From: Parcubacteria group bacterium CG08_land_8_20_14_0_20_48_21
GTDB taxonomy: Bacteria > Patescibacteriota > Patescibacteriia > UBA1544
Direction of reading: 5' to 3'
Length of the DNA stretch: 42,283 nucleotides
Assembly (NCBI GenBank): GCA_002774425.1
Contig: PEYJ01000029.1
Coordinates: 1-42,283 of the forward strand
In this document: one piece after another, positions 9,262 through 42,283 of the stretch
Layout of the letters: the number at the start of each line of letters is the position of its first letter
Position numbering within the stretch: position 1 is the stretch's first letter
The notes under the pieces: generated by a model
Databases searched by the model: none
Told to the model about the DNA's origin: nothing
The model's input: the letters and a program-made list of their open reading frames with translations, nothing else
Made by a program: the position numbers and the translations under genes

Positions 9262-11985
9262 ATGGCATCCAAAAGAAAAACTTTTATTATCATTGACGGT
9301 CATGCATTGCTGCACCGCGCTTGGCATGCGCTGCCGCCTCTCACCACAAAAAAAGGCGTGGTGGTCAATGCGGTGTACGGTTTTACCACGGTGCTGCTCA
9401 AAATTTTCAAAGACCTGCACCCCGACTATTCGGCTGTTGCTTTTGACGTTGCCGCGCCGACCTTTCGCCATAAACGCTTTGCCGCGTACAAAGCGCATCG
9501 GGAGAAACAGCCTCAAGAACTTTATGACCAGCTGCCGATTCTCAAGGATGTTTTGAGAGCTTTTCGGGTGGCGATATTTGAGAAAAAAGGATATGAAGCA
9601 GATGATGTGATCGGGACGCTCACCGCATTGGCCGGTTCAACTGACAATATTATTGTGACGGGCGATCAGGATACACTGCAGCTCATTGACGCGCATACGT
9701 GGGTGTACGCCATGCAAAAAGGCATAAGTGAATTCGCTATTTATGATGCGCAGGCGGTACAAGACCGGTATGCTTTGGACGTGGCGCAGCTTATTGATTA
9801 CAAAGCGCTGCGCGGCGATCCTTCCGACAATATTCCGGGTGTGCAGGGAGTGGGCGAAAAAACCGCAACTGATCTTTTGCAGCAATTCGGCAGCCTTGAA
9901 GAGCTCTATCGTCATCTGGAAACGGCAACTTCCAAGGCGCGGAAATTGAAGCCTGCGGTACGGGAGAAACTGCTCACCCATCAACATGATGCGTTCCAGA
10001 GCAAAGAACTTGCGACCATTGTGCGCGACGTGGCAATTCCCTTTAACCTTGATGACTGCGCAGTGCAGCCCCCCGATAGGGAGCGTGCGGTAGCGTTGTT
10101 TCAAGAGTTGTCATTTGCATCGCTTATGAAAAATATTCCGCATAGCGGCGACGCAACATCGCATGTGCGGAAAAACGCCAAACTTCCCCGCGGGTATCGG
10201 CTCATTACCAAGCGCGCCGATTTTGAGGAGTTGCTCAAACTGCTTGCGGCGGCTCCTGCATTTGCCTTGGATACGGAAACAACCTCGCTCAACACGCTTG
10301 ACGCAAAAGTTTTAGGTATCAGCGTATCTACAAAAGTTGGTGAAGCGGCATACTGCGCATTGCCTGATGCAGCCGGGGAGAGACAAAAGTGGCTTGCCGC
10401 CGCAAAACTGGTTTTAGAAAATCGGCACATTGTAAAAATAGGACACAACCTGAAATATGACATGGAAGTTTTGGCAAACGACGGAATTCGGGTTGCAGAA
10501 CCTCTCTTTGACACCATGGTCGCTTCGTATCTACTGAACACGCAATCACGCGGCAACGATCTGGATACGCTGACGCTTCTTGAATACGGACATACGATGA
10601 TACCCCTTGAACGGCTTTTGGGTCCGAAAGGGAAGGATCAAAAAACCATGGATGAGATTCCTCCGACGGAAGTGGCGGAATATGCGTGCGAAGACGCGGA
10701 TTACGCGTGGCGGCTCTATGAGAAGTTTTTACCTCGTCTCAAAAAAGAGCGCATGGAGACGCTATTTACTGATATGGAGATGCAGCTTATTCCCGTGCTG
10801 GTTGCCATGGAGCGAGAAGGTATAGCTGTTGATATGAGCTTTCTTCGGGAGATGAGCATGCATCTCAAAAAACGTATTACATCGCTTGAGCGGAATATCT
10901 ATGCGCTTGCAGGTTCCGAATTTAATATCGCCTCGCCCCTCCAATTAAAAAAAATACTTTTTACAGATCTAGGGATTGACCCGAAAGGTCTTGCGAAAAT
11001 CAAGACTGGCATTTCCACTGCTGCGAGTGAATTGGAGAAGTTGAAAGGGATCCATGCCATAATTCCGCTCATCAGTGATTTTCGCGAAGTGACGAAATTG
11101 TTGTCAACCTATGTGGATGCCTTGCCGAAACTCGTGCGCAAGGACACCGGTCGCGTGCATACGAGTTACAATCAAACGGTTGCCGCAACAGGTCGCCTAT
11201 CATCATCAGATCCGAATTTACAGAATATACCCATACGTACAGAGATCGGCAAGAAGATCAGAAAGAGCTTTATTGCAAAAAAAGGATCGGAGCTTTTAGC
11301 TGCGGACTACTCGCAAATTGAGTTGCGCATCGTTGCCTCGCTCGCTCATGACCGCAAAATGCTTGCCGCATTCCACAAGGATCAAGACATTCATGCAACG
11401 ACTGCTGCGGAGATCGCCGGATGTTCCTTAGAAGAGGTTACACCGGAAATGCGCCGCAAAGCAAAAACCGTGAATTTCGGCGTGCTCTATGGCATGGGTG
11501 CGCACGGACTTGCGGCTTCCGCCGATATCACCTATGCTGAAGCACGGGAATTCATCGGCGCCTACTTTACGCTCTATAAGGGCGTTGCGAAGTACATGGA
11601 AGATACCAAAGCGTTCGCGCGCACACACGGATATGTCAAAACGCTTTTCGGACGTGTACGATATTTTCCGGACATTCTCTCGGGTCTGCCACAGGTGCGC
11701 GCCCAAGCGGAGCGCATGGCCATCAATATGCCAGTGCAGGGGACCGCAGCCGATATCATGAAATACGCCATGATCAAACTCCATCGTCTGCTTGATCCGG
11801 ATGAAGCGAAAATTCTGCTCCAAGTGCATGATGAATTGGTGCTTGAAGTGCGGAAAGGATTTGCAGAGAAAACGGCAAAGACGGTTCGGGTGTGCATGGA
11901 AGGTGTGCACCAACTGGCCGCGCCACTCAAGGTCAATATCACAGTAGGGAGGAATTGGGGGGAAATGAAGGAGTTCACATCATAA
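9262..11985 (+). CDS. polA: DNA polymerase I
   Basis: 5'-3' exo IIDGHALLHRAWHA, EADDVIGT, GDPSDNIPGV; 3'-5' exo DTETT; polymerase ADYSQIELR, KTVNFGVLYGM, QVHDELV. Confidence 0.98.
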   Translation: MASKRKTFIIIDGHALLHRAWHALPPLTTKKGVVVNAVYGFTTVLLKIFKDLHPDYSAVAFDVAAPTFRHKRFAAYKAHREKQPQELYDQLPILKDVLRAFRVAIFEKKGYEADDVIGTLTALAGSTDNIIVTGDQDTLQLIDAHTWVYAMQKGISEFAIYDAQAVQDRYALDVAQLIDYKALRGDPSDNIPGVQGVGEKTATDLLQQFGSLEELYRHLETATSKARKLKPAVREKLLTHQHDAFQSKELATIVRDVAIPFNLDDCAVQPPDRERAVALFQELSFASLMKNIPHSGDATSHVRKNAKLPRGYRLITKRADFEELLKLLAAAPAFALDTETTSLNTLDAKVLGISVSTKVGEAAYCALPDAAGERQKWLAAAKLVLENRHIVKIGHNLKYDMEVLANDGIRVAEPLFDTMVASYLLNTQSRGNDLDTLTLLEYGHTMIPLERLLGPKGKDQKTMDEIPPTEVAEYACEDADYAWRLYEKFLPRLKKERMETLFTDMEMQLIPVLVAMEREGIAVDMSFLREMSMHLKKRITSLERNIYALAGSEFNIASPLQLKKILFTDLGIDPKGLAKIKTGISTAASELEKLKGIHAIIPLISDFREVTKLLSTYVDALPKLVRKDTGRVHTSYNQTVAATGRLSSSDPNLQNIPIRTEIGKKIRKSFIAKKGSELLAADYSQIELRIVASLAHDRKMLAAFHKDQDIHATTAAEIAGCSLEEVTPEMRRKAKTVNFGVLYGMGAHGLAASADITYAEAREFIGAYFTLYKGVAKYMEDTKAFARTHGYVKTLFGRVRYFPDILSGLPQVRAQAERMAINMPVQGTAADIMKYAMIKLHRLLDPDEAKILLQVHDELVLEVRKGFAEKTAKTVRVCMEGVHQLAAPLKVNITVGRNWGEMKEFTS

Positions 11986-34640: not shown

Positions 34641-34923
34641 AGAAAAGTTCGTATGTAAGATAAATATAATGTAGGTAGTGCGATAGGTACATGGCTATTA
34701 TGCGGAAAAAAGTTACAACCTGATCCATCCTACAGATGTGCATTGGACATCGGCAGGATGGTTTTTTGAGGGTAGAAAACCTTGTAAAAACCTGTCTGTT
34801 CCAGTATAAAACTGGAAACGATAACTCACCATACCGTACTATTGTCAAATATATGGCGTTCGTTTGGTATTGTGGTTGTGGGTGCGGCGTGGTTTTACCG
34901 ATATACTAGGTCAAGAAAACCGG

Positions 34924-34952
34924 TTGACATACCTATCGTGCTACGCTACACT
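34924..34952 (+). promoter_or_regulatory. Promoter of tRNA-Asn
   Basis: TTGACA-17 nt-TACACT. Confidence 0.75.
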
Positions 34953-34979
34953 ATTTTTGTTCTTTTCATAAAGAAATAT

Positions 34980-35054
34980 TCCGGGGTAGCTCAGCGGTAG
35001 AGCAGTTGACTGTTAATCAATTGGTCGTGGGTTCGAATCCCACCCCCGGAGCCA
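34980..35054 (+). tRNA. tRNA-Asn(GTT), likely integration site
   Basis: TCCGGGG/CCCCGGA acceptor, GTTGA-CTGTTAA-TCAAT anticodon arm, GCCA end. Confidence 0.97.
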
Positions 35055-36656
35055 TATGGGATGAGCAGAGCCAAAAGCTCTGCTTTTCTCTTTATTTACG
35101 GGCTTATTCAGATGTTCGAATATTTTATTTTGGTCTATTTTCTCTCCCATAAGCTCGCCGACTCGGTCAAAGATGATTTTAAACGCTTTGTGAAGGGAAA
35201 CCTCGACTTTTTTGCCGTTTAGCGTAGTGTTCGAAAAAATCAGGGACAAAAGTAGTTTTTTATCGTCCACCATCTCCACTTTGTTCCGGTTGATGTAAAT
35301 TTTCCATGCTTGCTTGGCCACTTGGAGGACCGTCACGCCCATTTCGAAGTATTTCAGGTTGGCATCCTTGTGCTTGTTGAGGTTGTCCAGTATCTGCTCC
35401 TGCTCAATTTTGTATTGCTCAAATTTCTTTTTATAAAAATCCTCGCTGATTTTCTCGTCGATCTTGTTATCGTATATCTTGTCCAGCCGTTGCGTGGCCA
35501 CTTCATACCGGCGGTTGAGCTCGGCCGTTGATTTGTTGCGGAATTCTATTTCCTCGCTATGGCTTTCCTTGAGAGCTTCCTGGACCCAGGAGAGCATACT
35601 TTCCACGGCCTGTTCGCCTTTGGGGTTCAGCGAGTTCATGGTTTCTATCAGTTGTGTGTCCAAGACTTCCTGCCGGACAAACTCCCTTTGTTGGCAGTTT
35701 TTATAATGGTTGCAGTGGCCGTACCAGTGGCCTCGTTGTATTTCCCATGTTATCCGGCCTTTGCATTCGTTACAGCGGAAGACGTTTTTAAAGAGCGGAT
35801 TATGCTTGAAATATCTCGGCGTGCCGTTGGTATGCATGATTTCCTGGCACCGGTCATATAGCTCTTTGGTGATGAGCGGTTCGTGTTCACCTTTGGTCAG
35901 CCGGCCGTCCCAGCGGTTCGTGCCGAAGTAGAACGGATCGCCGAGAAGTTGATGGACTCTTGAATGGCTTACTTTATTTCCTCCACGGGACCGCAAGCCT
36001 TCAGCATAGATGACTTCGGACAGTTTTTTGGTTGAGTAGCGGTTAGTGGCGTATAAGTCAAACATTTTTTTAATGAGCGGCGACTTGTCCGGATCAATCA
36101 CATGGATTTTATGTCCTTTTTCGCCAATGGTTTTATATCCAAGCGGCGGTTTGGCCGGAAGCCAGCCTTGGGACAGTTTTTCTTTTTGTCCTTTCCTGAC
36201 GTTTTCAGAAAGCAGTCGGATATAATACTCGGCTGTGGCGACTTTAACTCGCCACATAAACCATTCGTGCGACTTGGAGTCTTTGTGAAGAGTACAGCCT
36301 TCTTTCACCAGATGAATGGTATGTTTTTCATCGGCCAGTATCCATTCGTCGATCACCGGCACATCCGCGAAGTTACGGGTCAGACGATCGGTTGTTTCCA
36401 CGAAGACCGTGTTGATCTTGGTTTTGGTTACATATTCCAGCATCTCATGGAATATTTTTCGCTGGATTTTTCCGGCGGCCGATTCCTGAATAGCAAAAAC
36501 CTTCGTGAGCTCAAAGCCGTTCCGGTCGGCATAGTCATGAAGGAGTTTTTCTTGAGCCGGCAAAGAGTAGCCGGAGTCCTCTTGATCCTTTGAGGAGACA
36601 CGGGCGTATCCCACGGCTCGCATTGATTCATTTTCGTTTTGCATTGTCATAGTCAT
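35013..36656 (-). CDS. Large serine recombinase (resolvase-recombinase-Zn ribbon)
   Basis: YARVSSKDQ catalytic Ser, DRLTRN, PPLGY, HEPLIT, CNEC..C..C, coiled coil; start at 36656, 36650 or 36644. Confidence 0.93.
   Translation of the reverse strand: MTMTMQNENESMRAVGYARVSSKDQEDSGYSLPAQEKLLHDYADRNGFELTKVFAIQESAAGKIQRKIFHEMLEYVTKTKINTVFVETTDRLTRNFADVPVIDEWILADEKHTIHLVKEGCTLHKDSKSHEWFMWRVKVATAEYYIRLLSENVRKGQKEKLSQGWLPAKPPLGYKTIGEKGHKIHVIDPDKSPLIKKMFDLYATNRYSTKKLSEVIYAEGLRSRGGNKVSHSRVHQLLGDPFYFGTNRWDGRLTKGEHEPLITKELYDRCQEIMHTNGTPRYFKHNPLFKNVFRCNECKGRITWEIQRGHWYGHCNHYKNCQQREFVRQEVLDTQLIETMNSLNPKGEQAVESMLSWVQEALKESHSEEIEFRNKSTAELNRRYEVATQRLDKIYDNKIDEKISEDFYKKKFEQYKIEQEQILDNLNKHKDANLKYFEMGVTVLQVAKQAWKIYINRNKVEMVDDKKLLLSLIFSNTTLNGKKVEVSLHKAFKIIFDRVGELMGEKIDQNKIFEHLNKPVNKEKSRAFGSAHPIWLRGWDSNPRPID
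35064..35093 (+). terminator. tRNA-Asn terminator lying within the recombinase ORF (antisense)
   Basis: AGCAGAGC-caaaa-GCTCTGCT-TTTCTCTTT. Confidence 0.7.
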
Positions 36657-36790
36657 TTTTTTGTTAATAATTATTTGTTCGAATGCGACCTTTGGTACCA
36701 AGACACACCATACGCTAATTTTTAGAACAAGCTAAGCTCGAGTTGCCCACATGCTTGGATTTTTCTCAAAATGTTGTAATTTCCTGTAAT

Positions 36791-36934
36791 TTGTTGCATT
36801 TAAGTGTATTTATCCTTGTGTAAATTTTTACCAGATTTGTTGGCTTATGTTGGGTTTTGCCGGGTTTTAGTGTATTTATTTTTGTTCGATTCATTGCCGT
36901 TTACTGCTGATTGTTGCCGTTAAGTGTATTTATC
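36791..36934. repeat. Three direct repeats of AGTGTATTTAT
   Basis: Copies at 36803, 36869 and 36923; the outer two extend to 22/24 nt (TTGTTGCnnTTAAGTGTATTTATC), 120 bp apart. Confidence 0.8.
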
Positions 36935-37146
36935 ATTTCCTGTTTTTCCTGAAGTTTCCGGATCAGAATTTGATCCTCGGCATATCGGCTATAAGCTTCT
37001 CTTAAGAATCCTTTCGCTCTGAACCACGACTTGACTGTATCGAGAGTCACTCCCACTTCACTGGCGATTTTCTCATAAGGGACACTAAGCCACCGCATCT
37101 CGATTGCTCGTTTGTGCCACGGTCTTAAGTAAGTGAGCTTGGGCAT
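36901..37146 (-). CDS. Small helix-turn-helix protein
   Basis: PYEKIASEVGVTLDTVKSWF HTH. Confidence 0.75.
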   Translation of the reverse strand: MPKLTYLRPWHKRAIEMRWLSVPYEKIASEVGVTLDTVKSWFRAKGFLREAYSRYAEDQILIRKLQEKQEMINTLNGNNQQ

Positions 37147-37147
37147 A

Positions 37148-37708
37148 TTACTTGATGGACATCTTGCGAAGTAATTCCGCTCTGGCTTCGGCGATGCTTT
37201 TTAATTTCTCGGACCGGCCGTTAACTTCTTTATAATTTTCTTTAATTTCTTTTAAATCCTTAACTTCTATATCATCGCCGTCCCATGCGGTCTGCTTGTC
37301 ATGCCGTCCGGTTTTACATGCTGATTGGTTTCCACCCTGCGTCAGATGTAGGACGGAGAGCAAGGTAATACTCCGGGGCTTGAACTTGGCATCTTCGCCC
37401 CGGGTTTTTGTGATTGCGATAAAACTCCACTCCTCGAGCTTGGCCAAACACTTCTTAATCGTTCGCCAGTCTTTTAAGCCGGAATAAATTAGAAGCGTTT
37501 TATTTGATGCTTCTACGGTCTGGCTTGCTTTGTTGGAGGCGATCTCGGTCAAGGCACAGTACACATTGCATAAGTTGCGAAACGCATCCACGCCGATGTG
37601 CTTATCAAGCCATTGCTGTCGCATGTATCGCAAAGCCGGCTTATCCTGATAAGCAAATGGAGCTTCGCGGTAATCCCTGACTTTATGATTTTTATTTTGC
37701 TGGTTCAT
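37148..37708 (-). CDS. Putative winged-HTH replication initiator-like protein
   Basis: VYCAL..IAS..EASNKTL...SGLKDWRTIKKCLAKLEEWSFI resembles the phage replisome-organiser HTH; K/E-rich tail. Confidence 0.5.
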   Translation of the reverse strand: MNQQNKNHKVRDYREAPFAYQDKPALRYMRQQWLDKHIGVDAFRNLCNVYCALTEIASNKASQTVEASNKTLLIYSGLKDWRTIKKCLAKLEEWSFIAITKTRGEDAKFKPRSITLLSVLHLTQGGNQSACKTGRHDKQTAWDGDDIEVKDLKEIKENYKEVNGRSEKLKSIAEARAELLRKMSIK

Positions 37709-37892
37709 TGTCGTATGGCACTAAGAGCTCACGGCCGCTTGTGATATCCTCGCAATAAAAACGCATCAGAGCGTCGTAATAGCCCACGAGGTTGAAAGCG
37801 ATATCATGCAAGTCCTGGTCATTCACTTCTTGGCCAAAGTCTTTTTTAAGAATCGCGCGGAGCTTTTCCAGCGTTTCCGGTTTTAATTTCAC
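37692..37892 (-). CDS. Hypothetical small protein
   Basis: GTG start 5 nt after the upstream stop; MKLKPETLEKLRAILKKDFGQEVNDQDLHDIAFNLVGYYDALM. Confidence 0.65.
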   Translation of the reverse strand: MKLKPETLEKLRAILKKDFGQEVNDQDLHDIAFNLVGYYDALMRFYCEDITSGRELLVPYDNEPAK

Positions 37893-37897
37893 AGGTC

Positions 37898-38140
37898 TTA
37901 GTCCTCGGCATAAATCCGCACTTTGACCTGTTTGAGCTCGTTGAAGAACGCCTGCGGCTCGACTTGAAGCTCGCGGCTCCAATATCGCTTCACCAGAGAA
38001 TCCAAGTCCGGGCTCTTGCCGAAGCAAAAGAGCACCTTGCGCGGATTTCCCCGATCCACGACCTCAAGAGAATCAGGAATAAATAATAAAAGCGCCGCGA
38101 CCAATGCCAGATCGGCGGTTTTGTAATAATTGTTTTCCAT
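37898..38140 (-). CDS. DUF5659 family protein
   Basis: YKTADLALVAALL...KVLFCF...YW...VEPQAFFNELKQVKVRIY. Confidence 0.75.
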   Translation of the reverse strand: MENNYYKTADLALVAALLLFIPDSLEVVDRGNPRKVLFCFGKSPDLDSLVKRYWSRELQVEPQAFFNELKQVKVRIYAED

Positions 38141-38306
38141 ATTGTGGCATTTTCATCGTCATTAATTTTTTCCTCTCACACGTATTAATTATTGCAATCG
38201 GGCCGCTATGCCTTAAATAGTCCGCAAAGAAATTTTTGCAAACAAAAAACGCCTGTTCTGCAGGCGCATCACCAAGGTTATTAACACTACTTGAGGAATA
38301 CGAGCG

Positions 38307-38987
38307 TCACCGCAAGAAAATTCTGTACTTCGGATTGATCCGGTAACCGTCGGTTCGACGGCCTTCGATGAGTCTTGTGATTTTCAAATCATTCTTTGCC
38401 TTGGCATTAATTTTCATAATGGCCGAACGGACAGAGTAATCACTCCCGGCGTTCGTAGCCATACAGATATCCGGTGTCGGCTGATAAGTTTTGCCGATCA
38501 GATATTTTACGATCCGATGACGCAGATCCTCTTTGCCCATTGGATAACAGTATTTGTTTTTGGGATCGCGGTATAAATCAGCCTCGGCCGATAAATGAAG
38601 AATGGTCTGTTTTAACTCCGGCTTGGTTTTTCCTTGGGCAAAATATTCGGCAAAAGCGACAGCCGCCTCCCGGGTGAATGTTTTTATAAACTGCTGGTCA
38701 TATTCGGTCAGCCCCTCAAACTTGCTTGTCCGGCGTTCCAAGAGGGATCGGATGCTTTTCACTTCGAGTTTAGTTTCGATGAGCTCCTTGGTCAGCGTAC
38801 CGATTGCCGGCCGGTTTGTCCTTATAATTTTTTCACTATCGGCAATACCGGCAGTTTTCATTGAAGACCGAAGTATCTTTTCAGTCGTGGCAATCGAAAG
38901 CCGGTACGTCGTGATCTTTGCGACATTTTTCCGGATATTGAATTTGTATCTGGTGGCCAGCGTGGCCTTTTTCATTTTCATAATCAT
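38307..38987 (-). CDS. Hypothetical protein with a C-terminal winged-helix domain
   Basis: SVRSAIMKINAK...LIEGRRTDGYRIN resembles an OmpR-type wHTH; start uncertain. Confidence 0.6.
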   Translation of the reverse strand: MIMKMKKATLATRYKFNIRKNVAKITTYRLSIATTEKILRSSMKTAGIADSEKIIRTNRPAIGTLTKELIETKLEVKSIRSLLERRTSKFEGLTEYDQQFIKTFTREAAVAFAEYFAQGKTKPELKQTILHLSAEADLYRDPKNKYCYPMGKEDLRHRIVKYLIGKTYQPTPDICMATNAGSDYSVRSAIMKINAKAKNDLKITRLIEGRRTDGYRINPKYRIFLR

Positions 38988-39115
38988 TTTTAAACTGGTC
39001 AGAATATCCCGATTTTGTCCACTATAGTGATTCAACTGGACAAAATTAGTGAATCAGATCCATTTTATGCCTCCCATTCACTAAAGTTAAGCACATTTAC
39101 TTATCCCTCCAGCAC

Positions 39116-39178
39116 TTGCGCTTATTTGCATTATAGCATAAAATAGATACTGTAAGTAAGGTTTAAACTAACATACAG
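39116..39178 (+). promoter_or_regulatory. abiE promoter with a palindromic operator
   Basis: TTGCGC-17-TAAAAT followed by an imperfect 29-nt IR CTGTAAGTAAGGTTTAAACTAACATACAG. Confidence 0.6.
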
Positions 39179-39186
39179 ACTATATT

Positions 39187-39777
39187 ATGGAAAAAGGCGA
39201 TTATATCTCAACAATTTTGCGATCAAAACAAACGGTTTTATCGGCCAAAGACATAATGTTGCTTTGGAGCGAAGCCAGTTCTGATGCGGCCAGAGTAAGG
39301 ATCAACTACTACGCCAAAAGCGGAGCTCTTTATCGTATTCGCAGAGGTTTTTATGCCAAGGATAAAGATTACAACAAATTCGAGTTGGCGACCAAAATAT
39401 TTACGCCCTCCTATATCAGCTTTGAGACCGTCCTCGGTCAGGCCGGCATAACCTTTCAGCACTACAATCAAATATTTATCGCATCTTATACCAAGCGAGA
39501 AATCACTGCCGATGGTCAGACATATTCCTATAAGCGAATCAAAGATGCCATTCTCACTAATCCGGCCGGTATTGAGAGCAAGGATAATTATTCTATCGCA
39601 ACTCCCGAGCGCGCGTTTTTAGATGTGGTTTATTTAAACAAGGATTATCACTTTGACAATCTCGGTCCTTTGAATTGGGACAAAGTATTCGAGATACTTT
39701 CTATTTATGGCGGCAACAAACGCATGGAAAAAATGGTCAAGAAATATCGCGAAGCATTAAATACAGAGACAAAATAA
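39187..39777 (+). CDS. abiEi: Type IV TA antitoxin AbiEi-like
   Basis: LYRIRRGFY, PSYISFETVL, IATPERAFLD. Confidence 0.85.
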   Translation: MEKGDYISTILRSKQTVLSAKDIMLLWSEASSDAARVRINYYAKSGALYRIRRGFYAKDKDYNKFELATKIFTPSYISFETVLGQAGITFQHYNQIFIASYTKREITADGQTYSYKRIKDAILTNPAGIESKDNYSIATPERAFLDVVYLNKDYHFDNLGPLNWDKVFEILSIYGGNKRMEKMVKKYREALNTETK

Positions 39778-39782
39778 ATTTT

Positions 39783-40487
39783 ATGACGCTCAACACCACA
39801 ACACACAAAAATATCCTCATCAAAATCCTTAAGGATATCTATACCGATTCAACAATCGGGCCGCTTTTGGGATTTAAGGGCGGTACGGCCGTCTATCTTT
39901 TTTATAATTTGAACCGCTTTTCAGTGGACTTGGATTTTGATTTACTCGATGCCGAAAAAGAGGACTATGTTTTCGAGCAAATAAAAAAGATTTTAGAGAA
40001 TTACGGCACAATAAAAGAAGCGGAAAAGAAACGTTTTAATCTGTTTTATGTTTTGGCTTATGACGACAAGGTTCCGGGTGCCCAGAATATCAAGGTGGAA
40101 ATTAATCGCCGGGAATTCGGCTCGAAGTATGAAGTAAAGTCATATCTCGGCATTTCCATGAAAGTTATGGTGCAGGAGGATATGTTCGCTCACAAGCTTT
40201 GTGCTATGTATGAGCGGATTGGTAAAACCAACCGCGACATTTTTGATGTCTGGTATTTTTTGCAGAATGAATGGCCGGTTAATAAGAAAATTGTCGAGGA
40301 ACGCACCAGTATGATTTTCAAGGAATTCTTACAGAAGTGTGTCGATTCACTGGAAAAAATGACCGACCAAAATATTCTTTCCGGCATGGGCGAACTATTG
40401 GACGCCAAGCAGAAAGATTGGGTAAAAGCCAAACTCCGCACCGAGACGATATTCTTGCTGAAGCTTAAATTACAAAACGAAAAATAA
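39783..40487 (+). CDS. abiEii: Type IV TA nucleotidyltransferase toxin AbiEii
   Basis: FKGGTA..L.RFSVDLDF, KVEI, AHKL, RDIFD. Confidence 0.9.
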   Translation: MTLNTTTHKNILIKILKDIYTDSTIGPLLGFKGGTAVYLFYNLNRFSVDLDFDLLDAEKEDYVFEQIKKILENYGTIKEAEKKRFNLFYVLAYDDKVPGAQNIKVEINRREFGSKYEVKSYLGISMKVMVQEDMFAHKLCAMYERIGKTNRDIFDVWYFLQNEWPVNKKIVEERTSMIFKEFLQKCVDSLEKMTDQNILSGMGELLDAKQKDWVKAKLRTETIFLLKLKLQNEK

Positions 40488-40488
40488 T

Positions 40489-41403
40489 ATGGCCCTATTC
40501 AAAATCAACGGCTCGGCCGTCAAGAAAATAACCGCCAAAGAGCTTGATCTGGAGAAAAACCTACAGACACTTTTTGAGAGCAATCTTGAAGAATTGTTAA
40601 ACATTATTTTTCTGGCTCATGAATATCCGACCAGTTTCGGCGGCCGGATTGATACCCTTGGTATTGATAAAGACGGCGCGCCTTGCATCATTGAATACAA
40701 GAAAAACCAAAACGATAATGTGATCAATCAAGGGCTTTCATATCTATACTGGCTTTTGGATCACAAGGCTGATTTTGAAAAAGTCTGTCAAAACAAAAAG
40801 ATTGAAATAGAGATTGACTGGGATTCTCCCCGGGTCATTTGCGTTGCTGAAAGCTACAATAAATTTGATCTGGATACGGTGAATGTTTTGCCGATTAATG
40901 TTGAGCTCTGGCGGTACCGCATCTATGACGAAAACATTCTCTTTTTGGAGCCGGAAAATTTTCAGAAAGTACGGGTATCAACGGCAAGTATTGTGCGGAA
41001 AACAAAACACGACAAAGAAAAACAAGAAATAATACAGAAGAATTATTCGGTGGACGAACATCTTGAGAAAGCTGGAGAGGATATCAAATCGTTATTTTTA
41101 AAGTTACGCGAAAAAATCATCTCGCTTGATACGGAAATTAAAGAAGATCCGCAAAAACACTATGTGGCTTATAAGCTATCGACCAACTTTGCCGATGTAG
41201 AGGTATATCGCAATCAGCTTAAAATTTTCTTGAACGTAAAAAGCGGACAACTTAACGATCCTGATTCCATTGCTCGGGATATGGAAAAACCAAAGCACAT
41301 CGGCCACCACGGCAATGGCGATTACGAGGTTAAGCTCGAAAGCGAAGCCGACATAGACAAGGTATTTTCGCTTATAAAGCAAAGCTACGATCTGAATAAA
41401 TAA
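40489..41403 (+). CDS. NucS-like PD-(D/E)XK endonuclease with a C-terminal DUF5655 domain
   Basis: EKNLQTLFE, RIDTLGID..IIEYKK..QGLSY; C-terminal KHYVAYK..NFAD..GHHGNGDYEV. Confidence 0.8.
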   Translation: MALFKINGSAVKKITAKELDLEKNLQTLFESNLEELLNIIFLAHEYPTSFGGRIDTLGIDKDGAPCIIEYKKNQNDNVINQGLSYLYWLLDHKADFEKVCQNKKIEIEIDWDSPRVICVAESYNKFDLDTVNVLPINVELWRYRIYDENILFLEPENFQKVRVSTASIVRKTKHDKEKQEIIQKNYSVDEHLEKAGEDIKSLFLKLREKIISLDTEIKEDPQKHYVAYKLSTNFADVEVYRNQLKIFLNVKSGQLNDPDSIARDMEKPKHIGHHGNGDYEVKLESEADIDKVFSLIKQSYDLNK

Positions 41404-41405
41404 GT

Positions 41406-42068
41406 ATGAAAATAAAAGATTTGCCAAAAGTTGATAGACCGCGAGAAAAACTGGAGAAATACGGCCCCGAGCGACTTTCTGATTCGGAACTTTTGGCTAT
41501 TCTTTTACGAACCGGAAGCGAAGGCATAAATGTAGTGGAATTATCCAGTAAGATTTTAAGGAAATTCAGTGGCGCTGGATTGGCCAAAGCGTCGGCCAAA
41601 GAATTGAAAAATACATTTGGTCTTGGAAGCGCGAAAGCGTGCGAAATCGTCGCCTGCTATGAACTTGGTCGTCGGCATTTACACGATAAGCAATCGGTTC
41701 TGCTTTTATCGCCAAAAGATGTTTGGGACGAACTCAAGGATATTCGGGATCATAAAAAAGAACACTTCGTGATTTTCTTTTTGGATTCCAGAAATCAGGA
41801 AATCAAGCGTGAAATCGTTTCAGTCGGTTCACTTAATGCAAATCTCGTTCATCCGCGCGAAGTATTTGAGCCGGCTGTCCGGCATTTGGCCGCGCAGGTT
41901 ATTATTGCTCACAATCACCCAGCCGGCGATCCAACACCATCGCAAGAAGATTCAGATATAACTAAGCAATTAGTTGATGCGGGCAAGCTTCTCGGTATCG
42001 ATATAAGCGACCACGTGATCGTCAGTAAAACAAATTTTTTCAGCTTCAAAGAGCATAAATTGATTTAA
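41406..42068 (+). CDS. radC: RadC / JAB-domain protein
   Basis: RPREKL, LSDSELLAILLRTG, VHPREVF, AHNHPAGDPTPSQED, DHVIV. Confidence 0.95.
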   Translation: MKIKDLPKVDRPREKLEKYGPERLSDSELLAILLRTGSEGINVVELSSKILRKFSGAGLAKASAKELKNTFGLGSAKACEIVACYELGRRHLHDKQSVLLLSPKDVWDELKDIRDHKKEHFVIFFLDSRNQEIKREIVSVGSLNANLVHPREVFEPAVRHLAAQVIIAHNHPAGDPTPSQEDSDITKQLVDAGKLLGIDISDHVIVSKTNFFSFKEHKLI

Positions 42069-42073
42069 ATATT

Positions 42074-42283
42074 ATGGCTACTCAAGATACAACCGGAAAA
42101 AAGTTCATGCGCGAAACAGACGCGCGTATTCTCATTGACCGCAGACTCCGCGAAGCCGATTGGGATATCGAAAACAAGAATCAGGTCTCAACCGAAGAGA
42201 CTTCACAGAACGGCCGCGCTGATTATATTCTTAAAGACTCAAGGGGTCGCGCCATAGCCGTTATTGAGGCAAAGCGTTTTGCT
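42074..42283 (+). CDS. hsdR: Type I restriction enzyme R subunit, N-terminal part (truncated by the window)
   Basis: ETDARILIDRRLREADW...GRADYILKD...AVIEAKR. Confidence 0.72.
   Translation, partial: MATQDTTGKKFMRETDARILIDRRLREADWDIENKNQVSTEETSQNGRADYILKDSRGRAIAVIEAKRFA

Follow-up and report, generated by a model that had tools for sequence, protein, structure and literature searches.

A large serine recombinase gene that ends antisense inside tRNA-Asn and appears to span its own attachment site in Patescibacteria

The stretch of DNA analysed here, called the window, is the entire contig PEYJ01000029.1 (42,283 nt) of Parcubacteria group bacterium CG08_land_8_20_14_0_20_48_21, from an assembly of 41 contigs, and the subject of this work is a large serine recombinase (LSR) gene whose 3' end lies inside an intact tRNA-Asn gene on the opposite strand. 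The LSR frame (36701/36656->35013, minus strand) reads antisense to a terminator hairpin and then to the last 42 nt of the tRNA, ending in ...HPIWLRGWDSNPRPID (equally written ...KEKSRAFGSAHPIWLRGWDSNPRPID) and a stop codon. In tRNA numbering, which is used for tRNA positions throughout, a W residue (TGG) is the antisense of C74-C75-A76 (35052-35054) and the following L (CTC) that of G71-A72-G73 (35049-35051); RG of the tail corresponds to the acceptor stem and WDSNP to the T-arm, with DSN at the T-loop, and the stop TAA (35013-35015) lies opposite T35-T36-A37 (U35-U36-A37 in the RNA), in the anticodon loop. Once CCA is read as W, any tRNA that has a variable loop of 5 nt, an NUU anticodon and A37 necessarily gives this TAA. 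The initial annotation of the window had described the overlap and the position of the stop codon, and both were correct to the base; its claim that about 80 bp combine three roles, those of tRNA end plus terminator, of protein tail and of attachment (att) site, was also borne out.

The protein carries Resolvase (PF00239, E 2.2e-21, residues 14-164) and Recombinase (PF07508, E 9e-16) domains. A zinc ribbon (PF13408) falls below the cut-off in the window's LSR (E 0.007) and is a precomputed assignment in many homologues; its four Cys are invariant or nearly so in alignment A1, of which the window's LSR carries every invariant column, R19 V20 S21 S22 included. Matches to the PDB are weak (the catalytic domains of TnpX and TP901-1), and in the model of the homologue P0050 the strands at 282-317 precede long helices at 337-454, the order of a zinc ribbon and a coiled coil. 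An alternative in-frame start, TTG at 36701, lies upstream of the ATG.

In the genome itself, open frames of at least 100 codons enter a tRNA antisense, by at least 30 nt, at 4 of 43 tRNAs, and a single overlap of this kind is, taken alone, not very rare. Homologues of the LSR were found in 1446 database clusters at E<=0.001, and 160 loci were fetched, 80 of them from species-representative genomes and 80 from metagenomes; after removal of 16 duplicates and of 18 loci without the 3' end of the gene, 126 were counted. The LSR gene runs into a tRNA-Asn called by ARAGORN on the opposite strand in 70 of them and into another tRNA in 3, with no ARAGORN tRNA in the other 53; 23 of these 53 show the acceptor, T-arm and anticodon stem of tRNA-Asn and then diverge, intron-like, at the anticodon. 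Altogether, the gene ends in tRNA-Asn in 93 of the 126 loci, a recurrence that excludes chance as the origin of the overlap, and the survey of related LSRs for tRNA-antisense tails proposed in the initial annotation thus had a positive outcome. Among the top 120 homologues, 49 C-termini are of the form xSN, antisense to the T-loop, 30 end two residues past W/L-L, as expected from a stop codon in the T-stem (such loci were observed directly), 22 are of a non-tRNA kind, termed P-arm type below, and 19 lie outside these patterns.

The target is widespread, a tRNA-Asn match being present in 41 of 41 genomes searched (39 of 39 passing the quality filter), and the same layout extends to LSRs of 25-31% identity: among 40 host relatives, it is seen at 5 of the 25 loci that have an ARAGORN tRNA-Asn. 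On viral contigs only relatives of at most 42% identity were found, none of them informative. Some family members stand on contigs binned as archaea (Methanodesulfokora, Bathyarchaeia, Micrarchaeota, Woesearchaeota and Methanoperedens) or as Simkania, Alphaproteobacteria or Caldisericia (the group of L077, L083, L064, L067 and L070); such bins outside the candidate phyla radiation (CPR) could reflect mis-binning or a wider host range. A different geometry was observed at locus L178 (G035:C1:155415-158487), where a full tRNA-Asn is followed by 45 nt, by a 42-nt copy of the tRNA-Asn 3' end of another allele and by an LSR (26% identical) that ends in this partial copy. In the genome of the window, a frame cut by a contig end (L245, G000:C31:10071-10556) runs antisense into a tRNA-Pro (10081-10157) with the tail ...LNWSGWRDLNPRP; its collinear match to the LSR C-terminus is weak (E 0.036), and it may represent the end of another, distant recombinase element.

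Three of the seven intron-like loci that were scanned contain a group I intron (Rfam RF00028, 75-93 bits) within tRNA-Asn, located in the anticodon loop (L134:1663-1904, L113:1530-1839, L114:3209-3497). With an intron at this place, the LSR frame skips the TAA and continues antisense into the intron, for at most 97 codons. Tails containing ...PIGYT... are of this intron origin; a tmRNA origin had been considered for them and was discarded, ARAGORN having returned a single, unrelated tmRNA. Many tRNA-Asn genes of Patescibacteria bear introns, and split tRNA-Asn matches were seen in genomes G018, G020, G033, G034 and G012.

Two close relatives show where the similarity to the window's element stops. 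The LSR of L085 is 98% identical to that of the window, and the alignment ends at 35048, from where its frame enters unrelated sequence. In L084 the element recurs, 95.3% identical over 4017 nt; the tRNA-Asn next to it is another allele, and the host flank is only 67.8% identical. Measured in steps of 25 nt, identity amounts to 84-100% in the element from 35050 on, to 64-88% within the tRNA and to about 40-60% upstream of the tRNA. From these two loci and the symmetry of the att arms, we infer a crossover centred at G71/A72 (35049/35050), within about 2 nt on either side. Distances along the arms are counted from this centre, the T/C step of TGGCTC on the LSR strand; the arm supplied by the host tRNA is called B, and the two arms of the element are called P' (on the LSR side) and P (at the far end).

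All three kinds of arm (B, P and P') have GGA at 10-12 from the centre. A TCGAAC-like motif at 14-19, with GAAC at 16-19, is present in 84 of 84 tRNA-Asn B arms; in 78% of 23 P arms GAAC is shifted outward by 5 bp, to 21-24. For serine integrases, it has been described that the motif bound by the zinc ribbon domain (ZD) lies at 11-19 in attB and at 16-24 in attP, the position of the recombinase domain (RD) being fixed (PMC3783163). The arms of this family follow this rule, with the T-loop TTCGAAC as the putative ZD motif, and GGA at 10-12 can be read as the RD motif. In six relatives, the core common to attL and attR, the two sites that flank an integrated element, is about GCTC (~4 nt), the crossover dinucleotide being placed by symmetry.

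The initial annotation had expected the 3' end of the tRNA to occur again at the far end of the element and had held that its absence would count against the proposal. No such copy was found in the assembly by BLAST with the tRNA and its trailer or by a 13-mer scan, which returned only T-arm and D-arm words of other tRNAs, and the attR sites of relatives, described next, carry no tRNA fragment. Since attL and attR share only about GCTC, as is expected for a serine recombinase, the absence of a duplicate is not a valid ground for refutation. An internal inverted attP copy was likewise not found in 34900-42283, where matches to the pattern numbered 6 against 10 expected by chance.

For the far end, a position matrix was built that covers 34 nt from the start of each of 15 junction arms (the L085 arm being one base out of register) and ends at codon 11, and all loci were scanned with it. 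Candidates for attR, in the same orientation as the LSR and 6.9-10.7 kb upstream of it, were found in L020, L080, L148, L128, L076 and L155; in L020, L080, L128 and L148 the LSR ends in an ARAGORN tRNA-Asn, in L076 and L155 the att junction is cut by a contig end, and a seventh attR-like site, in L042, is ambiguous. At all six, a reversed host terminator-like stretch is followed by xxGCTC and then by the P arm, and they appear to be attR sites such as a serine recombinase would be expected to leave.

These P arms contain an open frame that has no gene of its own. Counted from the hexamer, 15 of 18 arms keep it open over 33-38 codons and five of the six attR sites over 34-38 codons, and upstream of the P arm at attR only 3-43 in-frame codons are open. 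Beyond the region covered by the matrix, W13 and P20 are both present in five of the six sites (six of seven with L042), L128 being the exception, and W13 occurs in 16 of all 18 printed tails. In a set of 12 arms P20 is written with four codons and L31 with five, and Q26 and E21 are each found in 9 of 12. An alignment of 16 full-length proteins that bear this tail, with bodies down to 47% identity, has W517 and P524 invariant, and LSRs 98-99% identical to that of the window (L085, P0001) bear other tails past W-L. Taking into account that W13, P20 and LL30-31 lie outside the half-site of ~25 bp, constraint on the DNA site does not explain their conservation. The simplest reading of these sequences is that the protein encoded by the excised form would be longer, with selection acting on its last ~32 residues, which integration cuts off. 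The claim of the initial annotation that an att site lies inside the LSR frame and that integration changes the C-terminus can be extended to the whole family, the P arm of the window's own element being deduced from relatives.

The tails acquired on integration are very different. At intact tRNAs they have 2 (25 loci), 7, 9, 11 (31 loci) or 27 codons, and where an intron follows, from 2 to 97. The tRNA-derived tail is probably a filler set by the host, the meaningful change being the loss of the native one. LSRs with a non-tRNA tail do not belong to free phage genomes: where the flank suffices, they stand upstream of a second element with its own LSR at tRNA-Asn, and this tandem layout was found in 10 loci (L022, L032, L040, L042, L046, L085, L105, L107, L110 and L118). 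The junction of such stacked elements is P'-core-P, the same structure as attP. Inside tRNA-Asn stacks, P' scars with no adjacent recombinase gene were also seen (L054:17740; L023:5751-11200), which suggests cassettes that lost their LSR. In three tandem arrays the downstream element has a tRNA-Arg immediately within its P-arm end (L085:2865-2938, with a TCT anticodon; L110:12675-12748; L040:1170-1243), which looks like tRNA cargo of the islands.

The P' arm, which in the window is coding sequence of the LSR, also has the features of a terminator. Between the tRNA and the body of the LSR frame, a hairpin at 35063-35085 and the T run behind it resemble a terminator when read on the tRNA strand; the hairpin (-19.8 kcal/mol, z = -4.9, none of 200 shuffles folding as well) encodes KEKSRAFGSAH on the LSR strand. 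At unoccupied sites in relatives, each tRNA-Asn is followed by its own hairpin; integration parts the tRNA from this trailer, and the P' arm supplies a substitute terminator. A stem of at least 5 pairs with at least 4 T in 6 was present in 70 of 81 distinct P' arms versus 66 of 1620 shuffles, with mean folding energies of -16.7 versus -6.3 kcal/mol. The stems vary between subfamilies, with changes on both sides. When one hairpin register was imposed on the P' alignment, 57% of cells were paired versus 45% in shuffles and covariation was 0.373 versus 0.199 (reached by 0 of 500 shuffles); a single fixed register was nevertheless rejected, because sliding the partner by +1 scored higher (64.7%, 0.434). 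Since registers differ between subfamilies, the per-sequence tests given above were used.

Taken together, the stretch is probably the attL of a small integrative island, whose LSR family inserts at the 3' tip of tRNA-Asn in Patescibacteria. In the proposed mechanism, the acceptor and T-arm of the tRNA would serve as the host half-site and strand exchange would occur at G71/A72, after which the element arm would restore G73-CCA and a terminator, both of which are written antisense in the ~30 codons that end the LSR. A crossover inside the LSR frame implies two forms of the gene. In the integrated form the end of the LSR would be dictated by the host tRNA, here 11 codons and TAA, and in the excised circle the LSR would be joined to the P arm, encoding a tail of ~32 residues (with W13, P20 and LL30-31 in relatives). 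Since the window's own attR lies past the contig end, the tail swap of this copy is argued from relatives.

What the loss of the tail does is a matter for more tentative proposals. The tail-bearing enzyme may be the form that integrates, and in the enzyme made from the integrated copy the loss of the tail may alter activity or directionality, or lower the activity and so stabilise the island; among readings of function we regard this as the most likely, though short of probable. A more specific version, in which the full-length enzyme made from the circle integrates, the tRNA-tailed enzyme of the integrated copy excises, and convergent transcription of the tRNA keeps the latter low, would dispense with a directionality factor and seems to us rather unlikely; if it were true, each DNA state would encode the enzyme that reverses that state. 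Transcription of the tRNA as far as the hairpin would run across the last ~100 nt of the LSR gene and might provide a regulatory antisense RNA, as suggested in the initial annotation. In the AlphaFold2 model of a tail-bearing homologue (mean predicted local distance difference test score, pLDDT, 82), the linker at 488-515, which is the region of the P' arm, has values below 50 and the helix at 524-537 values of 53-68, which would fit a tethered peptide.

It has to be noted that several results weigh against the explanation given above. The attR and P arm of the window's own element were found neither in the window nor in the 41-contig assembly by tblastn with 5 non-tRNA and 18 P-arm tails; no terminal repeats indicating circular contigs were seen in any of 37 whole-contig loci; and no empty syntenic sites for attR flanks were found among the loci examined or 30 relatives of G041. 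Those attP-type junctions that have enough flank are all chromosomal, most of them in tandem arrays. As regards the tail itself, the attR tail of L128 lacks W13 and P20 though its LSR is 78% identical, P20 occurs in only 12 of the 18 printed tails, and the 12 arms of the conservation table were picked by eye from the 18. For that set pN/pS is 0.56 (pN 0.44) with pS saturated at 0.78, an indication of purifying selection that is qualitative only. The tail in the AlphaFold2 model is of low confidence and has no docking site, and the tolerance of integrated tails of 2-97 codons also fits a dispensable C-terminus.

A rival explanation is that attP merely overlaps the end of the gene as a by-product of compaction in a very small element, the tail having no role in the regulation of recombination and both forms of the protein being equivalent, which we take as possible though short of probable. 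It agrees with integrated tails that are arbitrary in length and sequence, with a tail and linker that are poorly predicted or disordered, with the degenerate attR tail of the close relative L128, and with the diversity of other junction tails (family (b), ...VNRVRTIF..., and six unclassified). What it does not explain is that W13, P20 and LL30-31, residues beyond the ~25-bp half-site, are kept with varied codons while the LSR bodies are 47-60% identical, or that the length of the tail frame stays within 33-38 codons in 15 of 18 arms, when an orphan frame at attR, never translated, would be expected to decay unless the excised form matters.

A geometry like that of tyrosine integrases, with the crossover in the anticodon loop and an element that carries the 42-nt 3' half of the tRNA, would leave the protein unchanged. 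The stop codon exactly at the anticodon loop would suit it, as would the 42-nt copy between tRNA-Asn and LSR in the distant relative L178. However, that stop is forced by the frame (CCA as W puts U35-U36-A37 in frame), no second tRNA 3' half exists in the genome, array junctions and attR sites diverge directly past TGGCTC with no tRNA fragment, and the identity of L084 falls at 35050 and not at 35013, so that this geometry appears largely refuted for the tRNA-Asn LSR family and is highly improbable here. It is also improbable, if less extremely so, that the island is a dead relic, fixed in place with an inactive LSR and an overlap of no present meaning. In keeping with a relic, no excision products were seen (contig depth in 4 runs; 37 whole-contig loci) and the contig ends inside the island; against it, the LSR frame is intact with all invariant residues of alignment A1, a 95%-identical element occurs in a host with a 68%-identical flank, island depth is about 0.3 of that of the flank in four runs (a weak measure), and the stretch is present in 24 groundwater or aquifer runs (0 of 24 of them RNA).

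The island to which the LSR gene belongs extends over at least 7.2 kb of the window, and its features are collected in Table 1. A core formed by the LSR, the 81-aa helix-turn-helix protein (HTH81), the 186-aa protein (p186), the DUF5659 protein and the 242-aa open reading frame (ORF) is common to the complete elements L020 and L128, the tblastx matches being weak for the 242-aa ORF. On the LSR strand and within 1.5 kb upstream of the LSR, the HTH81 gene is found in 33 loci and the p186 gene in 55. HTH81 is a possible directionality factor, and the direct repeats between the LSR start and its gene may be regulatory, operator or iteron-like sites. No phage structural genes were seen in the island. 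The promoter-like site upstream of the tRNA is a weak call, such sites in the region being no more frequent than in shuffles.

Table 1. Features of the tRNA-Asn locus and of the island in the window.
Feature	Position	Strand	Remarks
Promoter-like site upstream of tRNA-Asn	34924-34952	+	TTGACA-17-TACACT; 10/12 consensus matches
tRNA-Asn(GTT), intact, CCA encoded	34980-35054	+	ARAGORN; host target (B arm) to about A72
LSR, 547 aa, read as integrated, tail-swapped form	36656->35013	-	ATG start 36656
Host-written LSR end	35013-35048	-	11 codons RGWDSNPRPID + TAA; antisense to tRNA positions 35-70
Putative B half-site (attB-type)	35022-35049	.	GGA at 10-12, TCGAAC at 14-19 from centre = T-stem, T-loop
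Inferred crossover centre, tRNA G71/A72	35049-35050	.	T/C of TGGCTC, LSR strand; symmetry; about +/-2 nt
Putative P' half-site from element	35050-35095	.	G73-CCA + replacement terminator, inside LSR coding sequence
Three ~38-nt direct repeats (family D1)	36780-36937	.	Shared TTAAGTGTATTTAT core; between LSR start and HTH gene
81-aa HTH protein, element core	36901-37146	-	Sigma70_r4_2 E 5e-4, below cut-off
186-aa protein (p186), element core	37148-37708	-	No assigned family
Further core genes	37692-39035	-	111-aa ORF; 80-aa DUF5659 37898-38140; 242-aa ORF 38307-39035
Cargo	39187-42283	+	AbiEi-like 39187-39777; AbiEii 39675-40487; DUF5655 40489-41403; RadC 41406-42068
Cargo, last gene: type I restriction R subunit start (hsdR)		+	Cut by contig end 42283

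The far end of the island, with its attR, lies past the end of the contig, and two Logan contigs extend beyond 42283, by about 1.2 kb and 6 kb. Two candidates in the assembly were examined and discarded: C36:61140, the best tblastn match for the attR, is an ordinary gene start with neither GCTC nor P arm, and the end of contig C2, which has a ResIII match, shows no overlap with the island and no continuation of the hsdR frame. Synteny with the same-family genome G001 did not locate the far end, the flanks being rearranged. As a weak measure of mobility, contig depth of the island was 0.27-0.36 of that of the host flank in 4 of 4 runs (the flank being 2.8-3.7 times as deep as the island), the depth contigs breaking inside the tRNA; this would fit an island present in a minority of the cells. 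A joint 35044->39173 seen in one run was discarded: its shorter side has 22 nt, no att-like sequence lies at 39173, and the joint is taken to come from the context of another organism. In run X6, the stretch 39067-40531 (AbiEi/AbiEii) was ~10x as deep in contigs as the LSR stretch and showed numerous variant letters, and the AbiE module therefore occurs in other genomic contexts in that community.

Several known systems share part of this design. Integrases of the SSV type belong to archaeal viruses and are tyrosine recombinases; they target a tRNA gene, leave a duplicated tRNA segment, and on integration have their gene split, with no swap of a short tail. As in the family described here, the integrase genes of SSV-type fuselloviruses and of phage Mx8 extend across attP (PMC4383910, where Tojo 1996 is cited for Mx8). 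In Mx8 attP lies within int, and the recombinant int gene formed on integration differs at its 3' end, so that the protein is altered (PMC6070905). The likeness to the Mx8 forms IntP and IntX is in the att core inside the int frame and the C-terminus changed by integration; unlike the present family, Mx8 is a single phage with a tyrosine recombinase whose tail is not tRNA-antisense and for which the effect on activity has been assayed. The window's LSR has serine recombinase domains only and is thus an analogue of the Mx8/SSV group and not a member.

A serine integrase alone carries out recombination of attP with attB, and needs a directionality factor for attL with attR. The LSRs of phages (Listeria A118/LI, phiC31, Bxb1) resemble the window's LSR in domain order and in having short att sites without long identity. 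The 5-bp shift of the ZD motif, which in attB is closer to the centre than it is in attP (PMC3783163), is also shared. They differ in that their targets are protein-coding genes or intergenic sites, in that attP lies outside the int frame, and in that excision needs a directionality factor, none having been identified in the island. The tRNA islands of the Islander type, which depend on tyrosine integrases, likewise have an intact tRNA whose end is restored by the element, with the integrase gene proximal to the tRNA. In contrast to them, what is re-supplied here amounts to a terminator and no more than about 5 nt of tRNA sequence (G73-CCA and the core), the recombinase belongs to another family, and no displaced tDNA fragment is present at the far end in the assembly or in the attR sites of relatives.

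As of 2014, serine integrases were not known to target tRNA genes (PMC4383910), and a full-text search, with subscription journals and supplements outside its reach, found no published account of a serine integrase with a tRNA gene as its target or with a gene that extends across its own attP. The text of a paper on islands of Patescibacteria (PMC12455944) does not contain the words recombinase, integrase or tRNA.

The relevance of these observations is thus that of a large serine integrase family with a tRNA gene as its target, in which the T-arm would double as RD and ZD motif. The LSR gene appears to span its own crossover, so that the state of the DNA would decide the protein, a design described, in the literature consulted, for the tyrosine integrases of Mx8 and SSV (PMC4383910), and a stretch of ~45 nt would be at once coding sequence, att half and replacement tRNA terminator. 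Serine integrases are used as tools for genome engineering, and one with the universal 3' end of a tRNA as target and, possibly, an intrinsic control of direction would be of practical interest. As regards the biology of the CPR, islands and tandem stacks at tRNA-Asn carry defence genes (AbiE, restriction systems), and these islands appear to move between distant hosts.

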